DNA of 64,000 nucleotides from Chiloscyllium plagiosum. Taxonomy: Eukaryota. The notes beneath the pieces are model-generated. The model was given only the letters and a program-made list of their open reading frames with translations. It was not told the origin of the DNA and made no database searches. The position numbers and the translations under genes were made by a program. Below, piece after piece: positions 5,191 through 52,905 of this stretch. The stretch covers positions 6,165,477-6,229,476 of the forward strand of contig NC_057759.1 of assembly GCF_004010195.1 (NCBI RefSeq), read 5' to 3'. Positions within the stretch are counted from its first letter, which is position 1, and each line of letters starts with the position of its first letter.

Positions 5191-7464
5191 AACTATAACC
5201 CTGCATTTCCCATAGCTAACCCACCTAACTTGCACATCCCTAGATAGTATTGGTAATTTAGCATGGCCAATCCAAATCAAGGCAGGTGAGTGAGTAGTGA
5301 TGTAGTAAATAAACGTCAGAGAAAGATAGACAGGGACGAGGAGAATAAATGTACCAGGAATCAAAACTGGATTCAAAATGTTATAAAATTGAAATTAAAA
5401 GCTGTGGTGTCTGAATATGTGCTGTATTGTAACGCAAGTGAGTGAATTGACTGCACCTGTTAAAGAGAATAGTTTTGATCTGAGACTCCTTAGAGACATG
5501 GCTTCAGGATGACAGGGATTGGATCCTGAATATTTAGTGGGTATGTGGCATTCAGGTCGAATGAGAAGCTCAGTTAAGGTAGAGGATTGGCACTAATAAT
5601 CAAAGCACTGATAACATGGTGGTCTGCTGTTGGCTCAGACTTCAGGTTCTGTTTTCTCTGTCCTCTGTTGATCTGCCTGTTCCCACAAAGTAAGATGGTG
5701 TCAGTTCTCAGCTCAGCTTTGACCTCCTTTTACACCTTCTGATTCAATAAAACAGTAAATCAGTCGATCAAGGCCCAATCCACAATCTCCCAGCCTGTCA
5801 AACCATCCAGACACAGAATGTCATCATAGCAGGGAGTAAAACAAGAAAAGTGAGAAAAAATAAAATTCACAGTTGGTGCTTGTAGTTAATGTTTTTCATT
5901 AGAAGGTAAACCAGAAATAGGGGTCTCGCAGTGCCGTTCTTGAGGAATTCTCTCTCCCTTACATCTAAATATTAGTACCTTGCTCTGAATTGTAACAATA
6001 CTCACGTCAACTAAAATAAAGCATCTGTTATCAAGTAGACATAGAGATGTACAGCATAGAAAAAACAACTTTTCGATCCAACACCCCCATGCTGACAAGA
6101 TATCCGATGCAAATCTAGTTCCATCTGCCAGCATTTGGCTCATATCGCTTCAACTCCTTCCTATTCATATACTCATCCAGATTCCTTTTAAATGTTGTAA
6201 TTGTATCAGCCTCCACCACTTTCTCTGGAGCTCACAACATACATGCACCACCCACTGCGTGACCCGTAGTTCCCTTTTAAATCTTCTCCTCTCACTCTAA
6301 ACCTTTTGCACCCCCACCCTGGGAAAATGACTTTCCCATTTTCCCTACCGTGCCCCTCATGATTTTAAAAACCTCTGAGGTCACCAGTCAGCCTCCACTC
6401 CAGGGAAAACAGCACTAGCATATTCAGCCTTTCCCTGTAGGTCAAATCCTCTAATGGCAACATCCTTGTAAATCTTTTCTGAACACTTTCAAGTTTAACA
6501 ACATATTTCCTGTCCTATAGCAGGGAGACAAGAATTGAATGCGCTGACCAATAAGACAAGCATACCAAACACCACGTGCACGTGAGTGTGTGTGCATGCT
6601 TGGTAAAATGTGTGATGGAGTATAAGCCTTTGCGAGGGTGGGTGTGTGTGGGGAGAGTATGTCTATGTATCTGGGAGAGAGCAAGTGTATGAGAAAGAGT
6701 GTCTGCATGAGTGTGTGTATATGTGCTTGTGTGAGAGTATACAGTACAGTGGATGTAAACCCAAGATCCCAGTTGAGGCTTTCCTCATTGATACTGAACT
6801 TAGAACATAGAACAGTACAGCACAGAACAGGCCCTTCAGCCCACGATGTTGTGCCGACAACTTGACAATCAGTCTCTGCTCGTCCACTAGAAATAATTAA
6901 GCAGTTCCACAACACACATTGGAGAAGGCCGGGTGGGACTTGTCTTTCAATTTTCTGGGAGGATCTGGATGCTGTCTTCCAGGTCAAACACATGTTGGAG
7001 GACCTTCGGCTCAGAGAGATGGAGCTGGAAGCCAGGCTCCAGACATGTTGGGAGGAAATGAGTAAAGCTAACCGGACACTTTATTCCAGGAGATGGTCTT
7101 CCCCTCCAGATAGCCTTCTAATTGGGTCAGTGGACAGGGTCAGGAGAGTGCGAGTCAGACAGGTAAAGGAGATCTGAGAGAGGGCTGCAGGCTGGAGAAG
7201 CTGGGTGGTGGGTGGTGACAGTAACGACAATGTTGGGGAGTGGGAGGTGTTGGTAATGGACAGAATAGTGACAGGCATTGTCTCCGTTCTCTGCAACTGG
7301 CAGCAGGAGGCCAAATGGCATCTGTGTCTGTCTGGCAGGAGGACTCAGAAACAGAAGTGGGAAAGGGAGGTTGCAGCGGGTATGATTCAACAATGTCGGG
7401 AGGAGAGATCCTCTGTTGCAGGCTCACTAGAAGTTACAAAGACAAAGCAGAACCTCAAAGCTCT

Positions 7465-7745
7465 GGGTGGCATGGCTCAGCGGTTAGACCACTCCCTCAT
7501 GACCCCAGGGACCCAGGTTCGATACCACCCTTAGGGGACTGTCTGTGCTCTATGGCACGTTCTCCACCTTGTGTCCGTGTGAGTTACCTCTGGATGCTCA
7601 GGTTTCCTCCCACAGTTCAAAAATTTGCAGTTCAGGGTGGATTGGCCATGCTAAAGTGTCCAGAAATGTGCAGGTTAGGGTGTATTAGCAATGGGGAAAT
7701 GCAGGGCTGTAGGGTAAGTGGGTTGGTCTGGGTTTGGTGCTGTTC
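7465..7745 (+). mobile_element. HE1-like tRNA-derived SINE (diverged)
   Basis: GGTGGCATGGCTCAGCGGTTAG A-box-like and GGTTCGATACC B-box-like head, followed by the body motif GGATTGGCCATGCTAAA. Confidence 0.75.
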
Positions 7746-7824
7746 AGAAGCTAGTCTGCTGTGGAGGAATGGGTTCCAGTTCGTAGGACACTCGACATCA
7801 GTCCTGGCGAAGATGGGATTTGTG

Positions 7825-8110
7825 CTGTCTCTCTCTCCACTCCTACCACTTTCTCCCCCCCCCAACCATTCTCTCTCTCCCACACTCATACCCCTCCATT
7901 CTGTCTCACTCCAACCCTCTGCTGCCTTTCTCTCTCCTCCATTCTCTTATGCACCCTCGTCCCCCCCCAGTCTCTCTTCAGCCCCACCCTCTATCCTTCT
8001 GTCCATTTTCTCTGTCTCCCCACACCCTCTACACCCCCCCCATCTATTCTCTCTCTTTCTCTCTCTCTCCCTTCCCACCCCCATCCTTTCTCATGCCTCA
8101 AGCCCTCTCT
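7825..8110 (+). repeat. CT-rich low-complexity tract
   Basis: Strongly pyrimidine-biased sequence; it explains the Ser/Pro/Leu-rich ORFs. Confidence 0.85.
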
Positions 8111-8869
8111 GAATGCTGAATCAAGCCCTTCAAGAACACGGAGAATGGATGGTGATGACTCTACCTGGGAGATGGGAGTGCATGAGAAATGGCTGGCCTT
8201 TAAACTTACTAGCTAAAATGATATCTTTAGAAACATCATAAAAGTCTGAAAGCATGTTCAATTTTAAAAAAAAAAGCTTCAGAATTCTTTGACAAAATTG
8301 CTTGAAATATGCGCAGTTAGGCCACAGCTAAGGACAGGCTGTAAGGGGTGGATGGTCTATTCCAAATCTTGTGCAATTGGTTCCGACTATGTAGAAATCG
8401 AGCCATAGATTTATGGAGCATGGAAACAAAATTTTTGATCCACACCGACAAGATATCCTAAATTAATATAGTGACCTATTCGCCAGCATTTGGTCCATAT
8501 CCCACTAAACCCTTCCCATTCATATACCCATCCAGATGCCTTTTAAATGTTATCATTGTAGCAGCCTCTACCAGTTCCTCTGGCAGCTCATTCATTTCAC
8601 GCACCACCCTTTGCATGAAAAGGTTACCCCTCAGGTCCCTTTTAAATCTTCATCCTCTCATCCTAAAGCTATGCCCCTCTAGATCTGGACAGCATTCCAC
8701 CCTGGGGAAAACGCATACAAACATTGAGCACCTGGACAAAATGTAAACAGAATAAAATAAAATATCGAGCCACAGTAGGGAAAGAAAATTGTGACTGCAG
8801 CCTTTTTTTAAACGATTGGCATTTAGACACTTTAAATTTGTCAGTAACACCAGCATCTTCACATTGCAT

Positions 8870-9305
8870 ACTGCGCATGCTCCTCAGAGTCAGCAAGCAC
8901 TGTGAATGTTCACCGGTGTCAGCAAAATAATGTGCATGCTCCTCGCTCACTGCAGAAATGGCCTGCAACATTTTTTAATGGACCAATGAGGAGCCCTAGA
9001 CAACCGGAAGGAGTATGGTCCTCCTGCCAGTCAGAACCCTCCTTTTGTCTGAATGCAGACACTGGACCATGAGCTTTGGAAGTTGCTGCACCTCTCTGTG
9101 AATAAAGATTGAGTTTCACCCCAGACTGCAAACTTCCTTCCTCTGTCCAACATCTGTGCATATAGCACGCTCTTTTCTCACCCCCTTTTCCATTTCTTTG
9201 TTTCATTCTGGGATTCAATTGTTGACTTGCAGGAACTGAAAGGAAAGGGAGTGAACAGACTCTGGAAAAGCCGTCCACATCTGGGTCTCCATTGGCAAAC
9301 ACATG
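8870..9305 (+). promoter_or_regulatory. Promoter-like module and candidate 5' UTR exon (paralog at 270-491)
   Basis: TGCGCATGC (NRF1-like) 8872, CCAAT 8983, CCGGAAG (ETS-like) 9004. Candidate exon cttgcag|9233-9305|gtaaat. Confidence 0.4.
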
Positions 9306-15229: not shown

Positions 15230-16460
15230 TGAGAAAGTCTGTAGCCTTCAAACTTGTCTTTAAACATTTAGACTAAAATGTAATGTTGAATTATAGAATA
15301 CATTTACATGATTTTGACCCTGAAACGAAACTCGGTACTATCAGATGCTGCCAATTTTATAATGGATTCTTATTACCCCTTGCAAGCGGGGCAGAGACAG
15401 AGAACAAAAATCTTTGCTGACTTGAGAGTTCAAAAAGACACTAGGGGGAAGAGACCATTTTAGTGCTGAGGCTATTGGAGCCGGTAGAAAATTAACTTAG
15501 TGCTTATTTGCTATGCACTGAATTTAACTGAATTTTGGGACTTTATTATGATATTGAGTAGCCATTACCAGGTAATAATAATGACGCTTTCACTTACTTG
15601 CTGTTCTTGCAGACCACTCTACAGACCGCCCCAACTGTCAATTCTAACTAGTCAGATCTTATGTCTTTTTTGGATTTGAATCACAAACTTGAAAAGAAGG
15701 CATGTTTAATTTGAGACTAATTAATCATTTTAAATACAAGCGTGCAGTAACATTTCAGCCTCAGGTACAGAATGATTCTGTGCTTAAGATAAAAAGCAGG
15801 AATCTGCTCCCAGCTTAAAATTATTCTAAACCCAACATTGAAGAGATTATGACACAATCTGTCGGGAAGCCATTTTATAGTCAAACGTTTGTCCTCCTTG
15901 CTAAGAAGCCATTTTGTTAAACAATGATATCAGACACGCGAGCTTTGCAAGGTTACCTTATGACATCTCTCACTAAATTTAGATTGGTACTTCTTTATAG
16001 GAACTTATCTCGTGAGCAGATGCTTAACTCAGCTAGGTCTGTTTTTCCTACCTGATGGATAGTTCAAGGCCTGTAGGAGTGATCAGTCAAGCGCACACAG
16101 ATCAGTCAGTTAACTTTCCTTCTTTATGAATTATTGTCTTTCACTGTTATCTGTCTAATTAAGAACATGCAATGTTTTTGTAAACTTTTGTATCAAGTAC
16201 ATCAGAGTAGCCAGCTAGTACTCTACTCTCCTAGTTAGAACCTAGTTCGTTTAGTTTATAGCTATCAGTGTTATGTTGTAACAGTGTTGCTATTAGTGAA
16301 TAAAGGGGCTGAGTAAAATTAAACTAAACTGTCTGTAAGAGGTTTTTATTCCAGACTTCCAAAGAGTACAATCTCCAGGACGAACCAAGACAGAGGCTCT
16401 TCCCTACTCAGGCTCTACAGGTCTGAGTCCACAAGGCTGTCTCAAATCTGTACTTTAACA
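15230..16460 (+). repeat. ERV 5' LTR (1231 bp)
   Basis: TGAGAAAGTC...TTTAACA with AATAAA at 16299; homologous to 21658-23186. Confidence 0.92.
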
Positions 16461-16463
16461 ATT

Positions 16464-16481
16464 TGACGCTGTGAGCAGGGT
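16464..16481 (+). promoter_or_regulatory. Primer-binding site, tRNA-Ser(CGA)-like
   Basis: TGACGCTGTGAGCAGGGT lies 3 nt after the LTR and nearly matches the complement of the vertebrate tRNA-Ser(CGA) 3' end (TGGCGCTGTGAGCAGG.T). Confidence 0.75.
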
Positions 16482-16794
16482 TCCAACAAGGGCTAGGTTT
16501 GAGTGAAACTGGAAAAGAGGAGCTTCATCTAAGGGTTAGACCTGAGACTAATGGGCCCACAAGGTAAGATTATACCTTGATTGCTCTTGTTCTGTATAGT
16601 CATGTGTGACTTCTCCCATTTCACTCTCACAGTACCCTGATGGAACCCTAAATGAGATGTTTAAATAGGAACTAAAAACAGAAACTGTCAAGTTTTTACA
16701 ATGTCAAGAATGCTTTACGAAATAATTAGTCTTATTGTTCATTGTCGGGTTGTTATATTCTAAAATATTTGTGTGTGTGTGTGCATGCGAGAGA

Positions 16795-17100
16795 GAGATT
16801 AGATTACTTGCAGTGTGGAAACAGGCCCTTCGGCCCAACAAGTCCACACCGAACCGCCAAAGCACAACCCACCCAGACCCATTCCCCTACGTTTACCCCT
16901 TCAGCTAACAGTACAGGAAATTTAGCATGGCCAATTCACCTAACCTGTACATTTTTGGAGTGTGGGATGAAACCGGAGCACCCAGAGGAAACCCACGCAG
17001 ACACTGGGAGAATGTGCAATCTCCACACAGACAGTTGCCTAGGCGAGAATTGAACCCGGATCTCTGGTGCTGTGAGGCAGCAGTGCTCACCCCTGTGCCA
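16795..17100 (-). mobile_element. HE1 SINE inserted in the ERV leader
   Basis: Reverse complement has a tRNA-like head (GGTTCAATTC) and a TAATC-repeat tail; inserted in a (GA)n/(GT)n tract. Confidence 0.85.
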
Positions 17101-17300
17101 GAGAGAGAGTGTGAGAGAGAAAAAGCGAGACAGGCACACAGAAGCTTGCAGTAAGTTTAACCCTTTGAGATTCAGTTTGGATGCACATTTATTTGTTGGT
17201 GAGTGAATGTTTGTGTTTTGTGTCTGTGCTCTGTCGTGATTGGGGTTGGTGCCCCTGTACATCAGTAGTTTTGTGAAGATTTAAAGTAGGTAGGATAAAT

Positions 17301-18050
17301 ATGGGTGTAACCCCAGATAAGATGAAAGACAAACATCCCCTAACGGAAATAATAGGTTTGTATCCTAATTATGAGAAACAATTAAAGGAAATATCAGCTG
17401 CAGCTGCTCAACTAAATAAAGGATTGGTCTCTAGGAGGCACACATGATTAACTCTACTCATTAAAATTGAACAAGGGATTTGGGAAAAAAAGGAAGTAAG
17501 CAGAAAGAAGCCATATCAGTGTGGAAAAAGGTAGTTAGGGAAAAATGGGAAAAATCAATGCAATCATCATGGAGGCAAAAGTGTATTAAACAGGGAGTTA
17601 GTCCATTAACTAAGGAAGGTTCTGAATTAGATTGGATAGAACTAAAACACAAATTTGAAGCATATGATTTAGAAGCAGATTTGGAATTGGCTAGAAAAGA
17701 AAAGGAAAGCAAAGATTTAGAACCGAAGCTGAAATGTTAGGAGCCCCAATGAAAAGGAAATAAGAATAAGAACAGGCTGCAGCTACACGGGACCGGACGA
17801 ATGACAAAGATTGTTCCTTATACCCCATCCTCTCCTCTCCCAAAGGTCAATAAAGAATGGATGAGGAATGGGATTCTGATTTGGAGAAGGAAATATTTTA
17901 TGTCTCTCCTCCTGTCAGCTGACCTCCTCAAGACTCACCCACAGTACGGTCAAGGGGAACACGCTTCATAAAACAAAGTTGCCTGAACCCCCCTCCCCAC
18001 TCTGAGGGCCAATCTGCTGAGACCCATGCCCTTCCCCCAACGAATCATTT
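17301..18050 (+). pseudogene. gag: ERV gag 5' remnant (matrix-like plus Pro-rich region)
   Basis: ATG-GGT (Met-Gly) start at 17301, Lys/Trp-rich helical segment (ORF 17480-17740), LYPIL late-domain-like motif near 17820. Frameshifted; CA and NC not recognisable. Confidence 0.65.
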
Positions 18051-18459
18051 GTCACCGTGTGTTAGGAGTGTTACAATTGCACAGATGAGTGAACTTAAGG
18101 CCACTGATATTGATCAATCTAACTGCTGCTTTTAAAATCAGTTTGTACTCTTTAACCAGACGGTCAAAGAAAATGATGCACTGCTGAAAGAACCAAACAT
18201 TGCTAGTTTTTCCCAAAAAAAGGTATTTCAGTTCAACTTTAAAACAACCAGAAGTGCAAGTCAAATTCAAGCTAATAAAATTTAAAATTCCACTTGGAAA
18301 GATGAAGCCACTGTACAGGTTGACAATTACAACTCTGTCCCCTAATTAGTATTTATAGACAGCCTGTGGCATTCTACTGGCACCACATTTAATTCATTCA
18401 AGATGAAAGTACACGTGGCTTCTACATGATTATTTTAAAACTGCACCCAGATTCTCCCA

Positions 18460-20392
18460 GCCATCTATACTGTGGGATTGGCTGCCTCAAATATAACTTT
18501 ACATCAAAAATGTAGAAGTCTGTACCTGCCATTCTGCAATATCCTCACTTACCTCTAAACGTACTGCACTCAGAATCTGCTTCTCTCCTTAAATACTGCT
18601 CTCACATTAACCCCATTACAGTCCTACAGGAAGAACGTCTTGAACTACATGATCCTCCCCATGATTGTGTTCTCATAAATTAACTTGTTAGTAAACCACG
18701 TCCTGATCTTACCGATCAGGCTCTAGTTAACCCAGACCTTATACTTTATGTCGATGGTTCTTCTTCTCTCTCTCCAGAGGGCAAACGTATGTCAGGATAT
18801 GCGATTGTCACTTTTTCCCAGACACTAGAAGCTTAGTCTGTCGACCCACCCTGTTCCATCCAGCAAACTGAACTCCTTACTCTCACCTGTGCCTGTATAC
18901 TTGCTAAAAGAAAGTCAGCTAATATCTATGCTGATTCCTATTATGCCTTTAGATGCGCCCATAATTTTGTTCAACGTTGGCAGCAGCGCGGCTTCCTTAG
19001 CTCATCAGGAATCCCAACCCTCAATGCTGCCTGTGATGCTAATCTCCTCATTGCTATTCAATTTCCCCCTCAATTGGCAATTATCAAACATTCTGCTCAC
19101 TCCTCTGATGCTTCCAATGTCACTAAAGGCAACAACGCTGCTGATGCAGCTGCTAAGAAAGCAGCTCTTGAGCAAAAAGACATGGTCATTCAAATGACGA
19201 GTTGGAAACCAAAGAGAGACTCTCCTATTTCCTCTTCTGACACCCTGACCATGCCTGACCGAGAGCCATCAGGGGGACGCCTCTGATGAGGAGAGACAAA
19301 GATACGTGAACCATGGTTGTTATGTAAGTAGTTATAATAAGCTTTGGGTTACGCCGGTAAGACAGACACATCTGCCTGACTTGCTTTTGCCTATTCTAGT
19401 TGATTGTGTTCATACGTATATGCATGTTGGTATGGAGGGAAAGGTGGACAGAATTCTCCAAACTTGGTGGAATTCCCACCTGCGAGAAAAAGCAAAACAA
19501 GCAGCTGCAAATTGCCTAATTCGTCAAAGGTATAATCCTGGGAAAGGAATAAAGTGTCCACCAGGTGAAACTCACTTGCAAGTGCACCTTTTGATACTAT
19601 CCAGTTAGATTTTATAGTTACCTAGAAGACACGGTTATAAGTATAGCTTAGTGATAATCGATGTATTCAGTAATGAATTAAAGCTTATCCCTGTACTGAC
19701 TGCACAGCAACAACTCCTTGTAAAATTCTGTTAAGGGAAATCATACCCAGATTTGGAATACCAGTAACGGTCTCTTCTGATAATGGCCCCCACTTCTGTG
19801 TGGAGCTAAACAAGGAAGAGCTTGAATATGAATCAAAAATTCCACTGTGCCAACCATCCCCAAGCAGCGGGAATTGTAGAAAGAGCCAATGATACCCTAA
19901 AAGGTCAGCTAAGCAAATTGGTAGAAGAAGCAGGCCTTAATTGGCTGCAAGTACTTCCAATTGCCCTTTTTAATATAGACCCATGACACAGAAAAAGACA
20001 TGATTCTCAGTGGCTGAACTAATATATGGAAAGCCCCTGAAGACTCCCTGGTCTGCACCATTAACTTCCCAACACATTGTTGATGTGCGTTTCATGGCAG
20101 AAGAGCTGCACAGGTACCTTATTAAGCTAACCAAAGCACTGCAGTCTTGTTATCAACAGGTCAAATAAGCTTATTGGATATTAGGGAAGGAAGAAGAAAG
20201 AGCTCCAATGTTTAAAGACATTAACCCTGGTGACTACATACTATTGAAATACTTTAATTGTGGAAAATTGGGACCCCATGGAAAAGTCCTTATCAAGTTC
20301 TTCTGACAACTGAAACTGCAGTAAAGGTAGAAAGATGCTCAACATGGGTCTACAAAGGACATTGCAAGCTTGTAGCCCCCTCACAGTTCTAA
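18460..20392 (+). pseudogene. pol: ERV pol remnant: tether, RNase H and integrase (protease and RT core deleted)
   Basis: 'PRPDLTDQALVNPDLILYVDGSS', 'NIYADSYYAF', 'GNNAADAAAKKAA', HHCC-like 'HTYMH...C', 'IIPRFGIPVTVSSDNGPHF', 'HPQAAGIVERANDTLK', 'PYQVLLTTETAVKV'. Confidence 0.92.
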
Positions 20393-21598
20393 TGTTAGTG
20401 CTGATACAGGCATCTGATGAAAGCCCAACCCAAGTACATGTGCACAAATGTAACCAACCCTTCTGTGATAACTTAGACCAGCTAAAACTCCAATGTGACT
20501 GTATGCATGATACTTGTACTAATACCATTGGAAGTTATGAATGCAGCTGCCCAGCTGAAACTCATTTAAACTACTCGCATTGTGTATCCAAACATCACTC
20601 TCGACCTTATTGTCATCCTTGCAACACTTCTAAGCCAGTCATCGTGAGATAGCCCAATTCCATAACCTTGTCCATTCCGTCAACTGAAAATTGCTACCTT
20701 GAGATGCTTGTCTGTTCCCTTTTCAAAATGAACCATGCAGATTGCAGTATTGAGCACATAGGGTTTGGTGATTTCTGTACTAAGGCACCTATTGCCATGA
20801 GACTGACCACTTATACCTTCTTGACGGAATCCTATCCTATCCAACCTACTGCCGCTGACAGAAATACCTTTACAAATTTCCTGTATTCAGTAGCTACGGT
20901 AATTAAAGACAAGCTGGAAAGATGAAGAAAGACCAAAAATACTATGCACTCCCAATCCTCCTCCTGTTACTAATGGTTTCTTTATTCAAGCTAAGCCCCC
21001 TGACCCATGTTATCTGCTCACTCTTCCATCATTCTAATGCCCTTACCACTTTTCATCCCCCCCCCACCGTGAGATGCCTGAAGTAGATGATGAATGGAAC
21101 ACCCACCAGCAGGTGAATCAGTATGAAACAACAAGTAGAGAAAAAAACAAAATGGGACTTACACAATGTCTTCCATCAACAAACCTGGTGGTCCAGGTTG
21201 CTGGGAGGCCTTATTCCTGGCTGGGGTATTGAGATGGCCCTAGATCAGATAAGTGACCTTGCGTAGGATATCAAAAAACCTGCCAACTCGACCGCCCATG
21301 CTTTGAAACTGGTGAACAAAGAGTTACAGGAGACTCAGATATGGATCCCATGTGGGACGTACTGATAATCCTTGGTCTCATCCTAGGAATATACATTGTC
21401 GTCCGCTTATGCATGAAATGGACCGTACATTGTTTTTCACCTGAGCCAAAGAGGAATCTGATTAATCGACCCATGTCTCCCCCTCTACCTATATGCCCGA
21501 ACTTCCATGCTGGAATCCAGTATTTTTCAGATTCTGCTCCTCCGTACGATCACTCGCCAGAGGAGACACTTGATTTATTAAGAATACAAATTGACTGA
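20344..21598 (+). pseudogene. env: ERV env remnant with N-terminal EGF-like module
   Basis: In order: signal-like MGLQRTLQACSPLTVLMLVLIQAS overlapping the pol end; CTNTIGSYECSC (20515-20550); in-frame TAG 20650; decayed basic cleavage site ~21141-21155; fusion-peptide-like WWSRLLGGLIPGWGIEMALDQI; heptad ANSTAHALKLVNKELQETQ; TM VLIILGLILGIYIVV and tail to 21598. Confidence 0.85.
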
Positions 21599-21645
21599 AT
21601 AGACTGAGTATACTTGTATAAGCCAAGTAGTTGTCATGAAATGAC

Positions 21646-21657
21646 AAAACAAGGGAA
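21646..21657 (+). promoter_or_regulatory. Polypurine tract
   Basis: AAAACAAGGGAA immediately before the TG of the 3' LTR. Confidence 0.7.
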
Positions 21658-23186
21658 TGAGAAAGTCTATAGCCTTAAAACCTGTCTTTAAACATTTAGA
21701 CTAAAATATAATGCTGGATTATAGAACACATTTACTGCACTAGAGAATAGACAGGCAGGAAGGCTCAGAAAAAGGGGGGAATCTCAGGGAATGTAGAAGA
21801 TAGGAACATCTGGGCTCACCAAATGATAACAGGATGCTGTAAGGCAATTAAGAACATTTGCCTTAGCTTCGGTGAATCTGTGTGAACAGGACATCAAGTG
21901 ATAACATTCACAGCCGTTCCCTTGTGAAATTAATGAGAGTGTTTGATTCCGACCCTGAAACGGAACTCAGTACTATCAAAAGATTTGTAATTAACAGCAG
22001 GATGCTGCCAATTATAATGGATTCTTATTAACCCTTGCAAGCGGGGCAGACAGAGAGAAACAAATCCTTGCTGACTTGAGAGTTCAAAAGGACATTAGAG
22101 GGAGAGACCATTTTAGTGGTGAGGCTATTGGAGCCTGTAGAAAATTAACACTTAGTGCTTATCTGCTATGGATTGAATTTAACTGCACTTTGGGTCTCTG
22201 TGATGCTATTGAGTAGCCATTACCAGTTATTAAATACAAACTCTGCAAGAGGTAATATGAATGAAGCTTTAACTAACTTGCTGTTCTTGCAGACCACTCC
22301 ACAGACTTTACAGACTACCCAGATTGTCAATTCGAACTAGTCAGATCTTATATCTTATTTGAATTTGAATCACAATCTTGCAAAGTGTGTTTAATTCGAG
22401 ACTAATTATTCATTTTAAATATAACCTTGCAGTAACATTTCAGCCTCAGGTACAGAATGATTCTGTGCTTAAGATAAAAAGCAGAAATCTGCTCCCAGCT
22501 TAAACTTATTCTAAACCTAACATTGAAGAGATTCTGACACAATCTGTCAGGAAGCCATTTTATGGTCAAAAATTTGCCGCCTTTGCTAAGAAGACATTTC
22601 GTAAAACAATGATATCAGACATGTGAGCTGTGCAAGGTTACCTTATGACATCTCCCACTTAATTTAGACTGGTACTTCGTTATAGGAACTTATCTCACGA
22701 GCAGATGCTTAACTCAGCTAGGTATGTTTTTCCTACCTGTAGGAAGATGCTTAACTCAGCTAGGTATGTTTTTCCTACCTGTAGGAGTGATCAGTCAAGC
22801 GCACACAGATCAGTGAGTTAACTTTTCTTCTTTCTGAATTATTGTCTTTCACTGTTATCTGTCTAATTAAGAACATGCAATGTTTTTGTAAACTTTTGTA
22901 TACTTTTGTCACACTTTGTGACAGTAGCCTGCTGGGGCACTTGAAGGGGACACTCTCCTGGGTTATTAGAACTCGTTAGTTTAGCTTATAGGTATCAGTG
23001 TTATGTTGTAACAGTGATGCTATTAGTGAATAAAGGAGTTGACTAAAATTAAACTAAACTGTCCGTAAGAGGTTTTTATTTGCAGACTTCCAAAGAGTAC
23101 GATCTCCGGGATGAACCAAGAGACTGTCTTTACAGGTCTGAGTCCACAAGGGATTCCCTGGGCTGTCTCAAATCTGTACAATAACA
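21658..23186 (+). repeat. ERV 3' LTR (1529 bp)
   Basis: TGAGAAAGTC...AATAACA, AATAAA at 23029, followed by the TSD TAAC. Confidence 0.92.
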
Positions 23187-49612: not shown

Positions 49613-49891
49613 TATAAATTGTGTTTGAAATTCACATTATTTAATTGTCATCTCGGTAGATGACAACTATTCAGTCAAGGATTAATTCTATCCTTCTCAG
49701 TCTCACACAAACTTCATGTAAATATGCTTCATCCCGGGTGGAGAATTTGAACTGTAGGCAGAGGCTGAACAGGCTGGAACTGTTTTCCCAGGAGAGTGAC
49801 CTTATAGAAGTTTATAAAATCATAAGGCACACGGCGAAGTCGTGGAGCCTGGTACAATTATAACATTTAAAAGGCATCTGAATGAGTATAA

Positions 49892-51396
49892 TGAGAAAGC
49901 CTTCAAATTTGTCCTTAAATACTTAGACTAAATGTAATGTTGAATTGCAGAACACAAGAAAATAAACAGGACAGGCAGGGAGGCATCAGGCCACAAAAGG
50001 GGGAACCTAGGATGTGCAGAAGATAAAAAACATCTGTTCTCACCAAGTGACAGCAGGATGTTCTAAAGCAATTAAGAACATTTGCCTTAACATCAATGAA
50101 TCTCTGTAAAAAGGACACGGTGATAACATTCACAGTTGTTAACTTATTAATTTGATGACAGTGTTTGATTGTGATCTCGGAAACTTTGACATGCTTCTGA
50201 GATGATACAAAAGCCTTGTAATAAACAGTCAGGTGCTATCAATTATAATGGATTCTTATTACCCGTGTGTATGTGCGCGTAAGAGAGAGAGAGACATGAA
50301 TATTTTGAATTTATTTGCATTTTACGACTTTGTGATGATTTTGAGTAGCCATTGCTGATTATGAAATGCAAACTCTAAAATGTAGTATTGATGAAGCTTT
50401 AACTTGGTGTTCCTACACACCACGACTGCCCCACTGTCAATTCTAACTCGTCAGATCTTCTGTCTTCTTTGAATTTGAATCACAACCCTGAAAAGGAAGC
50501 AATTTTAATTTGAGACTAATAAACCATTTAAAATTTAATCTTTCAGCCTCAGATACAGAATGATTTTGTGTTTAAGATAAAAAACAGGAGTCTGCTCCTA
50601 GCTTAAAAGTTATTCTAAACCTAACATTGAAGAGATTCTGACAAAATCTGTCAGGAAGCCATTTTATGGTCAATGTTTGCCCTCCTCACTAAGATGCCAT
50701 TTTGTAAAACAATGATATCTGACATGTGAACTGTGCAAGGTTACCTTATGACCTCTTACACTTAGTTGAGACTGATACCTCTTTATGATCGGGACCTACC
50801 TCACCAACAGGCACTGACTGGGCTGGATTTGTTTTTCCCAACTGATGGATGGCTAAGGGCCTCCAGGAGTGATCAGCTAAGCGCACACAGACCTGTTAAT
50901 TAACTTCTGTTCCTTAGCAATTGTTGCCTTTCCACTGTCTGTCTAATTGAGAACATGCAGTGTTTTTTGTAAAGTTTTGTAAAAAGGAAGCCTGTTTGAG
51001 ACAGAAGAGTGGAGTAGTCTGTGAGAGCTCTTCAAGGAAGAGCTGGTATCCTACTTTTCTAGGGTTTTAGAACCTCTGCGAGCCTGGCTTATAGGTGTCA
51101 ATGTTATGTTGTAACAGTGATAGTATTGGTAAATAAAGGGGAAGGCTAAAATTAAACAAAACTGTAAGAGATTTTTATCTCCAGGACAAACCAGGAGAGG
51201 CTTATAGGTCTGAGTCCACTAGGGATTCCCTGGGCTGTGAGGAGAAAGTGAGGTCTGCAGATGCTGGAGAGCAGAGCTGAAAATGTGTTGCTGGAACAGC
51301 GCAGCAGGTCAGGCAGCATCCAGGGAACAGGAGAATCGACGTTTTGGGCATAAGCCCTAGCCCTTCCCTTGGCTGTCTCAAATCTGTACTTTAACA
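49892..51396 (+). mobile_element. Solo LTR of the same ERV family, inserted in a CR1 3' end
   Basis: TGAGAAAG...TACTTTAACA is colinear with the 21658-23186 LTR. Flanks are ATAA/ATAT (imperfect 4-bp TSD). It contains a pLTR insertion at 51238-51363 with a TTCCCT(G/T)GGCTGT duplication. Confidence 0.9.
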
Positions 51397-52905
51397 ATAT
51401 CAACAGGAAAGGTTTATAAAGAGATGGTGAAGTGCTGGCAAATAGGACTAGATTAGGTTAGAATATCTGGTCAGCATGGACAAGTTGGACCGAAGGGTCT
51501 GTTTCCATGCTATACGTCTCTATGACTCGACGACTCTTCAGTAACTCTTGCCCTTACAGTGAGCACAGTTTCCCTCCATCTCTGTACTTAACCCCTCCTT
51601 CACGGATGGTTGTTGAAACAATGCAATAATGTGGCCTATTTGTCTATCTTCATTGTAACTTTGAAAATGCTCTTAATAATTGCAGATTTTAATGCTGTTC
51701 CTGAATGTCTATTTTGAATGAGGATTCAGTTTATCTATCTTCAACACTGGTGTGTAAACGTCAATGGGCTCCCTACCTTCCATTTGTTAGAGGCAGCTGG
51801 TTACTCTTTGCTTTGAACTGAGGAAGTATTACAGCATCTTAGTCCCTTCAGTGTTTTTCTGGAGGAAGACACAGGGACACCACCTGTAAATCAACACGAG
51901 GCTCGTCTGGCAATTTTGAACTGATCAGTGTCACATTCTTTAGGATGTGTGTTGTTTTTTTTCTTTAAAGCCTAACAACTTAACCAGAACCACGAATCTG
52001 ATTCCATTGTTGCCCTGAGTTGCTCCTTGTCTGGAGATTGTGTTTATTTTTCAAGTGATTTGATACCAATTGATTTGGAGATGCTGGTGTTGGACTGGGG
52101 TGGACAATGTTAAAAAATCACACATCAGGTGCTTCCAAAAAAAAACTGTTGGACTATAACCTGGTGTTGTGCGATTTTTAACTTGATACCAATTGAGTAA
52201 GATCCAGAAACTGAGCAACAACTGCCCAGCACCATGAATGGGACTAATCAATCACCAGGATGCTTACACAGTTCAATGTCCAACTCCCCAACTACTTGTT
52301 GGAAATAGGAAAAACGGCGCTATTTCCAATGTTTTTACCAAGACCCCAGAGTATGTCCTTTTACAAGAGTATCCCATTTCTACAGTTGGTCCACACAACC
52401 TCAAGAAAGAGCGGGAAACAGATTGAAATTAAAACAGGGTTCAGAGGATTACAAACCACAAGAATGACCCATAGCAGCTTCTTCCCGCTCTGTCTCTCTC
52501 AGCAGGCCCACACACAGCCTGAGGAAGACCTCCCTCTCTCCCCCCGCCACCCCCACTCACTCCAAATTCTGGGACCAGTTCCTGCTCTCTCGGCCTCTTA
52601 CAAATAGCCCCCAGTTCTCCCTGAACTCACCCCGACTCAATCCCGGTCTCAGCTAGCTAACCTTCACTTCCAGGTTTAAATGCTTCTTTTCCTCTTCATG
52701 CTTTGGTATTATGCACCTACTTTTTATGCTGAAAACTATGGTGATGATGGTAAGACTCTTTACAAGAACCTTTTTCTTAATATTCAAACTTATTTCAAGA
52801 AACTGAGTACTATAAGATAACTTTAGTTGTTGCACCGTCAGCTGTTTTAGGGCATTAATGGGCTGTAGCTAGCACCTGGTGATTGTTCAGTAACTGGGAC
52901 AATTA

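Follow-up and report, generated by a model that had tools for sequence, protein, structure and literature searches.

A class I endogenous retrovirus (ERV) family of the shark Chiloscyllium plagiosum encodes a gamma-type envelope (Env) headed by EGF-like modules, a real and family-wide feature that appears to be new to the literature. One copy lies in the window, i.e., the whole 64,000-nucleotide stretch analyzed here, and its "EGF" domain is a hybrid that consists of an N-terminal EGF-like remnant and the last two-thirds of a calcium-binding-type EGF (cbEGF) domain. The initial annotation had proposed the capture of a single host EGF module between the signal peptide and SU. The captured module was indeed host-EGF-like, in frame at that position and common to the whole lineage, but larger than proposed: it comprises an EGF-like remnant, a mucin-like stalk, and an EGF plus cbEGF pair, with the window domain as a secondary hybrid.

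The window provirus and its EGF-like domain

The provirus spans positions 15230 to 23186 and was assigned to a family of class I ERVs whose env is of the gamma type; all its features listed below are on the + strand unless stated otherwise. The 5′ LTR (15230 to 16460; TG...CA) pairs with the 3′ LTR (21658 to 23186), which is preceded by a purine-rich tract, with 115 mismatches over 1204 aligned positions. Combined with the rates given in the available text of PMC4422223, this 9.6% mismatch converts into ∼20 to 220 million years, a range too wide for an age claim. Elsewhere in the window, a solo LTR-like copy with 72 to 74% identity to the provirus LTRs was found at 49891 to 51398, and a run of 668 N at 1954 to 2621. 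A SINE-like repeat (16796 to 17100; no strand assigned), 74 to 87% identical to several other window sites, is inserted 3′ of the 5′ LTR and is followed by a degenerate gag-like remnant (17200 to 18440), in which a Pfam scan of 17471 to 17737 gave no match. Protease and reverse transcriptase (RT) are absent upstream of ∼18441, a junction common to several copies, whereas the relative L092 retains RT. RNase H (18837 to 19286; PF00075, 46.1 bits versus a cutoff of 25.8) and an integrase disrupted by stops and frameshifts (19249 to 20340; three-frame reading; PF17921, E of 0.002, below cutoff) come next, and the env frame is thus placed, as first noted, behind integrase and upstream of the 3′ LTR.

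The env region opens with a putative start and signal-peptide-like leader (20335 to 20418; ATGs at 20335 and 20344 and a hydrophobic stretch). It continues with a Cys-rich N-terminal piece of four cysteines, the front of the EGF-like remnant (20449 to 20505), the C-terminal two-thirds of a cbEGF-type domain, with four cysteines and the Asx-hydroxylation pattern (20506 to 20583), and the first part of SU (20584 to 21039). The end of SU, the TM fusion peptide and heptad, the membrane anchor, and the tail occupy 21041 to 21598. The first part of SU contains stops at 20650 to 20652 and 20923 to 20925, the former absent from 26 of 30 related loci, and a CXXC-like motif near 21008 to 21017 that is interrupted by a frameshift. 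A deletion of ∼430 nt in SU (21039 to 21041) is common to the subclade of the window copy; it was found in 7 of the 26 loci matching there, and 14 others have 309 to 441 additional bases. TM has lost ∼230 nt, including the CX6CC region, at 21340/21341. With RT absent, two stops in env, and two deletions besides the 20505/20506 junction described below, the window copy is dead, and all copies read are now broken.

The features from which the domain had originally been recognized were recovered in the frame from 20314 to 20649. The hydrophobic leader showed a best 11-residue hydropathy of 2.5 at residues 23 to 33; cysteines lie at 20449, 20464, 20494, 20500, 20515, 20542, 20548, and 20581, the later ones with the EGF spacing C-x4-C-x8-C-x-C-x10-C; the Asx-hydroxylation pattern C-x-[DN]-x4-[FY]-x-C-x-C is located at 20515 to 20550; and the frame continues past a single TAG (20650 to 20652) to 20925. 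Across all six frames of the window, the Asx-hydroxylation pattern has a single occurrence, and none of 100 block shuffles contained it. Pfam matched the domain to four EGF families, every one of them under its curated cutoff (best, EGF_CA, 23.7 bits versus 27, E of 6e-5 for a 42-residue piece), and a PDB search returned five fibrillin entries (E of 5e-6 to 7e-3) that ranked behind one hit to a designed repeat protein, a chance match with no stretch passing. The initial annotation had considered that the domain might lack any EGF profile or fold match, which is not borne out by the Pfam EGF and fibrillin hits, or that sister proviruses might lack the cysteines, which are instead kept across the family. 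Family-wide presence of the module also rules out a post-integration insertion unique to this copy.

Long and short env subfamilies and the 20505/20506 junction

A search of the C. plagiosum genome with the window frame yielded 150 matches among 233 candidates, several loci giving two matches. The motif region was in one piece in all of the best 30 loci, and weaker matches were split by 500 to 700 nt. Twenty-three of the latter were fetched, corresponding to 22 copies of a long form and to L082, a short form carrying an insertion. The loci read thus comprise a long subfamily of 22 and a short subfamily of 31, which includes the window. The order in the long form is signal peptide, Cys-rich EGF-like remnant, Thr-rich mucin-like stalk, a first EGF domain (EGF1), cbEGF-type domain, SU, and TM, and EGF1 as the query identified 24 places in the genome at E < 0.01 among 38 candidates. 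Long-only DNA was covered in sequencing runs of organisms B and C (by pieces with 16 differences over 391 bases and 6 over 248), which rules out an assembly error as the source of the cassette; it was found under three species labels, and the short-type joint was also present in a run of organism C. None of the samples listed as carriers was RNA. Raw RNA run X21 provided three reads, none of them on the cassette (2% of the run), and X16 is possibly DNA.

EGF1 exceeded the Pfam EGF_3 cutoff (PF12947; 28.5) in two of five copies (34.9 in L061 and 35.0 in L064), scored below it in L063 (26.9) and L065 (23.0), and had no match in L062. The cbEGF of long frames, which is of the calcium-binding type as judged by its pattern, reached at most 16.9 against PF07645 EGF_CA (cutoff, 27), and the N-terminal remnant gave a weak, subcutoff stabilin-type EGF match in two of three long frames (E of 0.007). 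All 12 cysteines of the EGF pair, the six EGF-spaced ones of EGF1 included, are conserved, each in 14 to 18 of 19 to 21 long loci, and those of the N-terminal piece are conserved in 15 to 19 of 18 to 19 short loci and in 12 to 16 of 16 to 17 long loci. Noncysteine EGF residues, e.g., a Gly-Asn-Gly turn and an acidic linker, are also retained, and a pattern search placed the acidic link D/N-x-D/N-E before the first cbEGF cysteine in 6 of 22 long loci. The stalk has 68 residues, 41% of which are Ser or Thr, and N-glycan sequons number 11 in the 357 residues of L061 and 3 in the 204 of the window. Structure models were poor (pLDDT of 39.6 for the first and 55.3 for the second), and the EGF-only fold matches of the second (best E of 0.002) are not independent, since it was built with rows of SUSD1, a host EGF protein. 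As a separate observation, the long-clade copy L063:913-1932 has lost the leader and stalk by another deletion and retains the EGF pair.

Downstream of the cassette, 22 of 53 loci (13 of 31 short, 9 of 22 long) have the CXXC pattern in SU. CX6CC in TM was detected in 16 of 31 short loci and, among the 6 long loci fetched over a sufficient length, in 2, with 4 loci dropped because their matches were due to chance only. ISD-like sequence was seen by eye in L062 and L065, a mis-spaced ISD pattern scan gave 0 of 53, and a basic stretch lies ahead of TM in three of six long loci. The TM of L061 matched Ebola-like HR1-HR2 (E of 1e-4) and TLV_coat (E of 0.03), each under its cutoff. The best PDB matches of the L092 RT were p80 RT/RNase H entries (E of 6e-19), which we take to be of the MLV type, ranking above Pr125Pol entries, presumably foamy; by this ranking, the RT is closest to gammaretroviral RT, and the RT adjoining L061 is class I-like. 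Among the 40 of 97 candidates scored, RT DNA was found beside nine long and three short env loci, and six other short loci matched just its last fifth. A large share of the short burst is therefore likely to have been nonautonomous.

All 31 short loci are continuous across 20505/20506, where 11 long loci have 518 to 543 extra nt and one has 806; under the BLAST rule used for gap sizing, 9 long loci were unclassified and L062 was reassigned to the long form. Relative to L061, the short form lacks 543 nt, in frame, that encode the mucin-like stalk together with EGF1 and the initial third of cbEGF. At the junction, the third cbEGF cysteine would follow the second cysteine pair of the N-terminal remnant, and these are probably equivalent points of two EGF-like repeats. 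The D-x-D/N-E-C acidic calcium residues, which the initial annotation had reported as missing, are indeed not found in the window because they were deleted with the first third of cbEGF, and an N-terminal D/N-x-D/N-E is present in 0 of 31 short loci. The hybrid has eight cysteines, of which those at 20464 and 20500 could replace the lost first two. The F/Y of the Asx-hydroxylation pattern is not general: 11 of 31 short loci have it, 3 of these matches containing a stop, and 10 more have H at this position, and the whole pattern was found in 8 of 22 long loci. None of six other short frames scanned reached the curated EGF cutoff, and five of them gave weak matches.

The EGF pairs of the host proteins uromodulin and SUSD1, the latter with 11 cysteines in register, are collinear across the junction solely with the long form, so that a deletion is much more probable than an insertion even on an unrooted tree. 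It is very improbable that the short form is instead ancestral, with the long form generated by insertion, or that the window motif arose by chance or convergence. The lack of a root and the subcutoff Pfam scores of the window would accommodate such a history, but the junction cuts a cbEGF whose parts match host pairs in order in the long form only, EGF matches of long copies exceed the cutoff, and shuffling never reproduced the motif.

Selection on env and relatives of the EGF pair

A tree on 1105 shared columns, unrooted and including 45 of the 53 loci (8 with coverage under 60% were dropped), resolved two star-like groups, long (16 loci) and short (29 loci), split by one branch with an SH-aLRT of 100. 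The dN/dS comparison suggested in the initial annotation was made from pairwise counts on 22 long and 18 short loci, with near-duplicates and the subclade of the window excluded. Over 512 env codons, the net long-versus-short ratio was 0.26 (0.16 to 0.40), or 0.38 (0.24 to 0.59) when a transition weight of 4 was assumed, versus 0.66, or 0.92 at this weight, within clades. The 48 hybrid codons gave 0.17 (0.05 to 0.51), or 0.28 (0.08 to 0.81) at weight 4, under which the interval for the cbEGF part alone extended to 1.04; values were alike with 20 short loci. The env shared by both subfamilies is thus under purifying selection between clades, hybrid codons included. Because evolution both preceding and following the deletion falls on the long-short branch, the ratio does not demonstrate infectivity of the short env. 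The pairwise ratio in the long clade was neutral (0.68 or 0.96), and selection on EGF1 and the stalk is not measurable because both are confined to this star-like, neutrally decaying group. For the stem of the subclade that includes the window (eight loci), the ratio was 0.45, or 0.65 (0.40 to 1.13), i.e., not clearly under selection. This subclade is concentrated on one contig, C50 (L001 to L004, L021, L027, and L037), a clustering that points to proviral segments having been duplicated locally.

The viral pair aligned to six shark SUSD1 proteins with 33 to 35% identity and 11 of 12 cysteines, and its best PDB profile match was the EGF pair of uromodulin (E of 0.002), aligned across the later junction. 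However, SUSD1 scores (124 to 132) were surpassed by those of 14 generic multi-EGF proteins among 51 targets. A profile search for the donor retrieved 43 generic multi-EGF proteins among 7999 candidates scored, and Atlas values were 0.81 for SUSD1 and 0.85 for generic EGF clusters, as leads only. Genome searches with EGF1 and the SUSD1 exon revealed no host exon under E of 0.06 except the query's own, and DNA likeness to the eight host loci read was never over 33 nt. Neither SUSD1 nor uromodulin is supported as the donor, since their scores are not above those of generic EGF arrays and DNA likeness is absent; likewise, exon L089 was confirmed as SUSD1 (P0044), with its donor role unsupported. 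On sequence grounds, the pair is of the uromodulin/SUSD1 type, at ∼35% identity, and homology points to a host origin of the cassette. Shark SUSD1 proteins (P0044 to P0049) have one EGF plus cbEGF pair followed by a long series of near-identical sushi repeats.

The initial annotation had described the captured host module as intronless. Stop-free coding is not proof of mRNA capture, since the host gene L084 itself holds stop-free tandem-cbEGF frames. These frames (L084:446-2647 and 6627-9299; C9, 28.62 Mb) extend over 734 and at least 891 codons, with 13 and 21 motifs, respectively. Giant multi-EGF exons are unusual among vertebrates. Dozens of near-identical EGF exons were also observed over ∼300 kb at C19:5.67-5.99 Mb, forming either an array or a tandem-EGF gene of great length.

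The SU piece that follows the pair had 0 relatives among 1.84 billion proteins, and no env relatives outside the genome were retrieved for TM (in a weak search) or in viral contigs. An EGF-free ancestor of env was not found in the three loci read: L094 is an internally deleted family member, and L095 and L096 represent different env families that lack an EGF-like frame over the stretch covered. In L095:209-832 (− strand), protease joins the integrase tail directly and env follows, making this other ERV family a second RT-less env-bearing element.

Proposed origin and role of the EGF cassette

We propose that an ancestral class I shark retrovirus acquired EGF coding sequence of host type within the front part of a gamma-type env. 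The resulting Env, whose order of parts is observed in the long form, consisted of signal peptide, EGF-like remnant, stalk rich in N-glycans and Thr, EGF plus calcium-binding-type EGF, SU, and TM. Throughout a drift to ∼35% identity from any host pair found, the cassette remained in frame and retained its 12 cysteines. Preservation of frame and cysteines, together with purifying selection, suggests that it was carried in a working envelope. A single template switch between two EGF-like repeats would then have removed ∼180 codons in register (the deletion is observed; its direction is presumed), leaving one hybrid EGF-like head devoid of acidic calcium ligands. This short form would have fueled a second insertion burst, with many copies, the window copy among them, lacking RT. 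In such an Env, the glycosylated stalk and the rigid EGF spacer would aid attachment to the cell surface or matrix and shield SU, and the SU core, through its CXXC/CX6CC switch, would trigger entry.

For the cassette we favor this role, an accessory glycosylated head that serves in attachment and shielding, with a probability of ∼0.55, or about even odds. Loss of EGF1 and the stalk in a successful subfamily argues against an essential receptor contact, and the hinge of gamma-type SU tolerates large in-frame insertions, as documented in the available sections of PMC9967133. The EGF module might instead be the receptor-binding determinant, a captured host ligand surface whose specificity the hybrid kept or changed, which we consider unlikely. 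It occupies the place that the receptor-binding domain has in gamma-type Envs, ahead of a hinge-like stretch and CXXC (PMC9967133, sections available); the deletion was in register and preserved a full EGF-like cysteine set, with the retained codons under purifying selection; and EGF pairs mediate binding in host fold matches, e.g., the CD97-CD55 and Notch-ligand complexes, as their entry titles indicate. Nevertheless, the larger subfamily dispensed with EGF1 and a third of cbEGF, the ∼130 SU residues of no known kind between cbEGF and CXXC could be the real binding domain, and engineered EGF-SU fusions bind yet block entry, according to the accessible part of PMC3182074.

Somewhat less probable still is a tolerated passenger in a permissive part of env, with selection acting just for an open frame and for paired cysteines in Env folding. 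Partial dispensability of the cassette, loop lengths that differ from those of host EGFs, selection on EGF1 that escapes direct measurement, and the insertion tolerance of the gamma-type SU hinge (PMC9967133, in the text available) would all be compatible with a passenger. Against this, the 230-residue cassette persisted until DNA likeness to the eight tested host loci was lost, and its noncysteine Gly-Asn-Gly turn and acidic linker were kept.

The common features of gamma-type Envs (MLV, ZfERV, and syncytin class), as summarized in the accessible text of PMC9967133, are largely shared by the shark family: signal peptide, SU with CXXC, and TM with heptad and CX6CC, with a basic cleavage stretch and an ISD-like stretch as possible further ones. 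The provirus type, with a class I RT, is likewise shared. The shark Env differs by the additional N-terminal EGF-like remnant, mucin-like stalk, and EGF-cbEGF pair, and by a front part of SU with no database relative. Its pair has in common with the N-terminal EGF plus cbEGF of uromodulin and SUSD1 the C-x2-C-H start, the five-residue acidic link, and 11 to 12 cysteines in register, uromodulin being the best PDB match by both sequence and fold (the latter from the model built with SUSD1 rows); by contrast, the viral loops are longer, and the ZP and sushi domains are absent. Engineered EGF-SU chimeras also place an EGF-fold module at the N terminus of a gamma-type SU, but these are laboratory constructs with a growth-factor EGF that block entry (PMC3182074, available part), and PMC3652111 and PMC3182074, as far as their available text goes, concern engineered EGF display or adaptors. 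In the shark family, by contrast, the EGF pair is natural and of the matrix type, and the lineage carrying it spread through a germ line. A broader and doubtful extrapolation is that shark class I retroviruses build Env heads from host extracellular modules, with the EGF-cbEGF pair, and later the hybrid, as a receptor-binding determinant whose tropism was changed by repeat contraction; if true, the family would be a natural counterpart of EGF-displaying vectors.

Filovirus GP carries a mucin-like domain. This heavily glycosylated, Ser/Thr-rich, and partly dispensable stretch on a gamma-type fusion protein resembles the shark stalk, which differs in being ahead of the SU core and flanked by EGF modules; GP2 is kin to gamma-type TM, as stated in the text available from PMC9967133. 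In acutely transforming retroviruses (e.g., v-sis, v-mpl, and v-sea), env-oncogene fusions place host coding sequence in frame behind the env signal peptide, and they replace env in defective viruses. The shark family, unlike these, retained SU and TM under purifying selection. We found no description of a natural retroviral Env with EGF modules in the open full-text literature, a scope outside which most subscription journals lie; "EGF" and "mucin" do not occur in the available text of the gamma-type Env review PMC9967133, nor "EGF" in that of PMC13709493 and PMC4422223.

Retroviral receptor-binding heads are fast changing, and their origin is not obvious. This family probably shows a gamma-type Env acquiring recognizable host modules in frame and keeping them under selection beside a normal SU-TM. 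One in-register deletion remodeled these modules, and the states before and after it are both preserved in many copies, making the origin of new Env heads directly testable by shark genome comparison.
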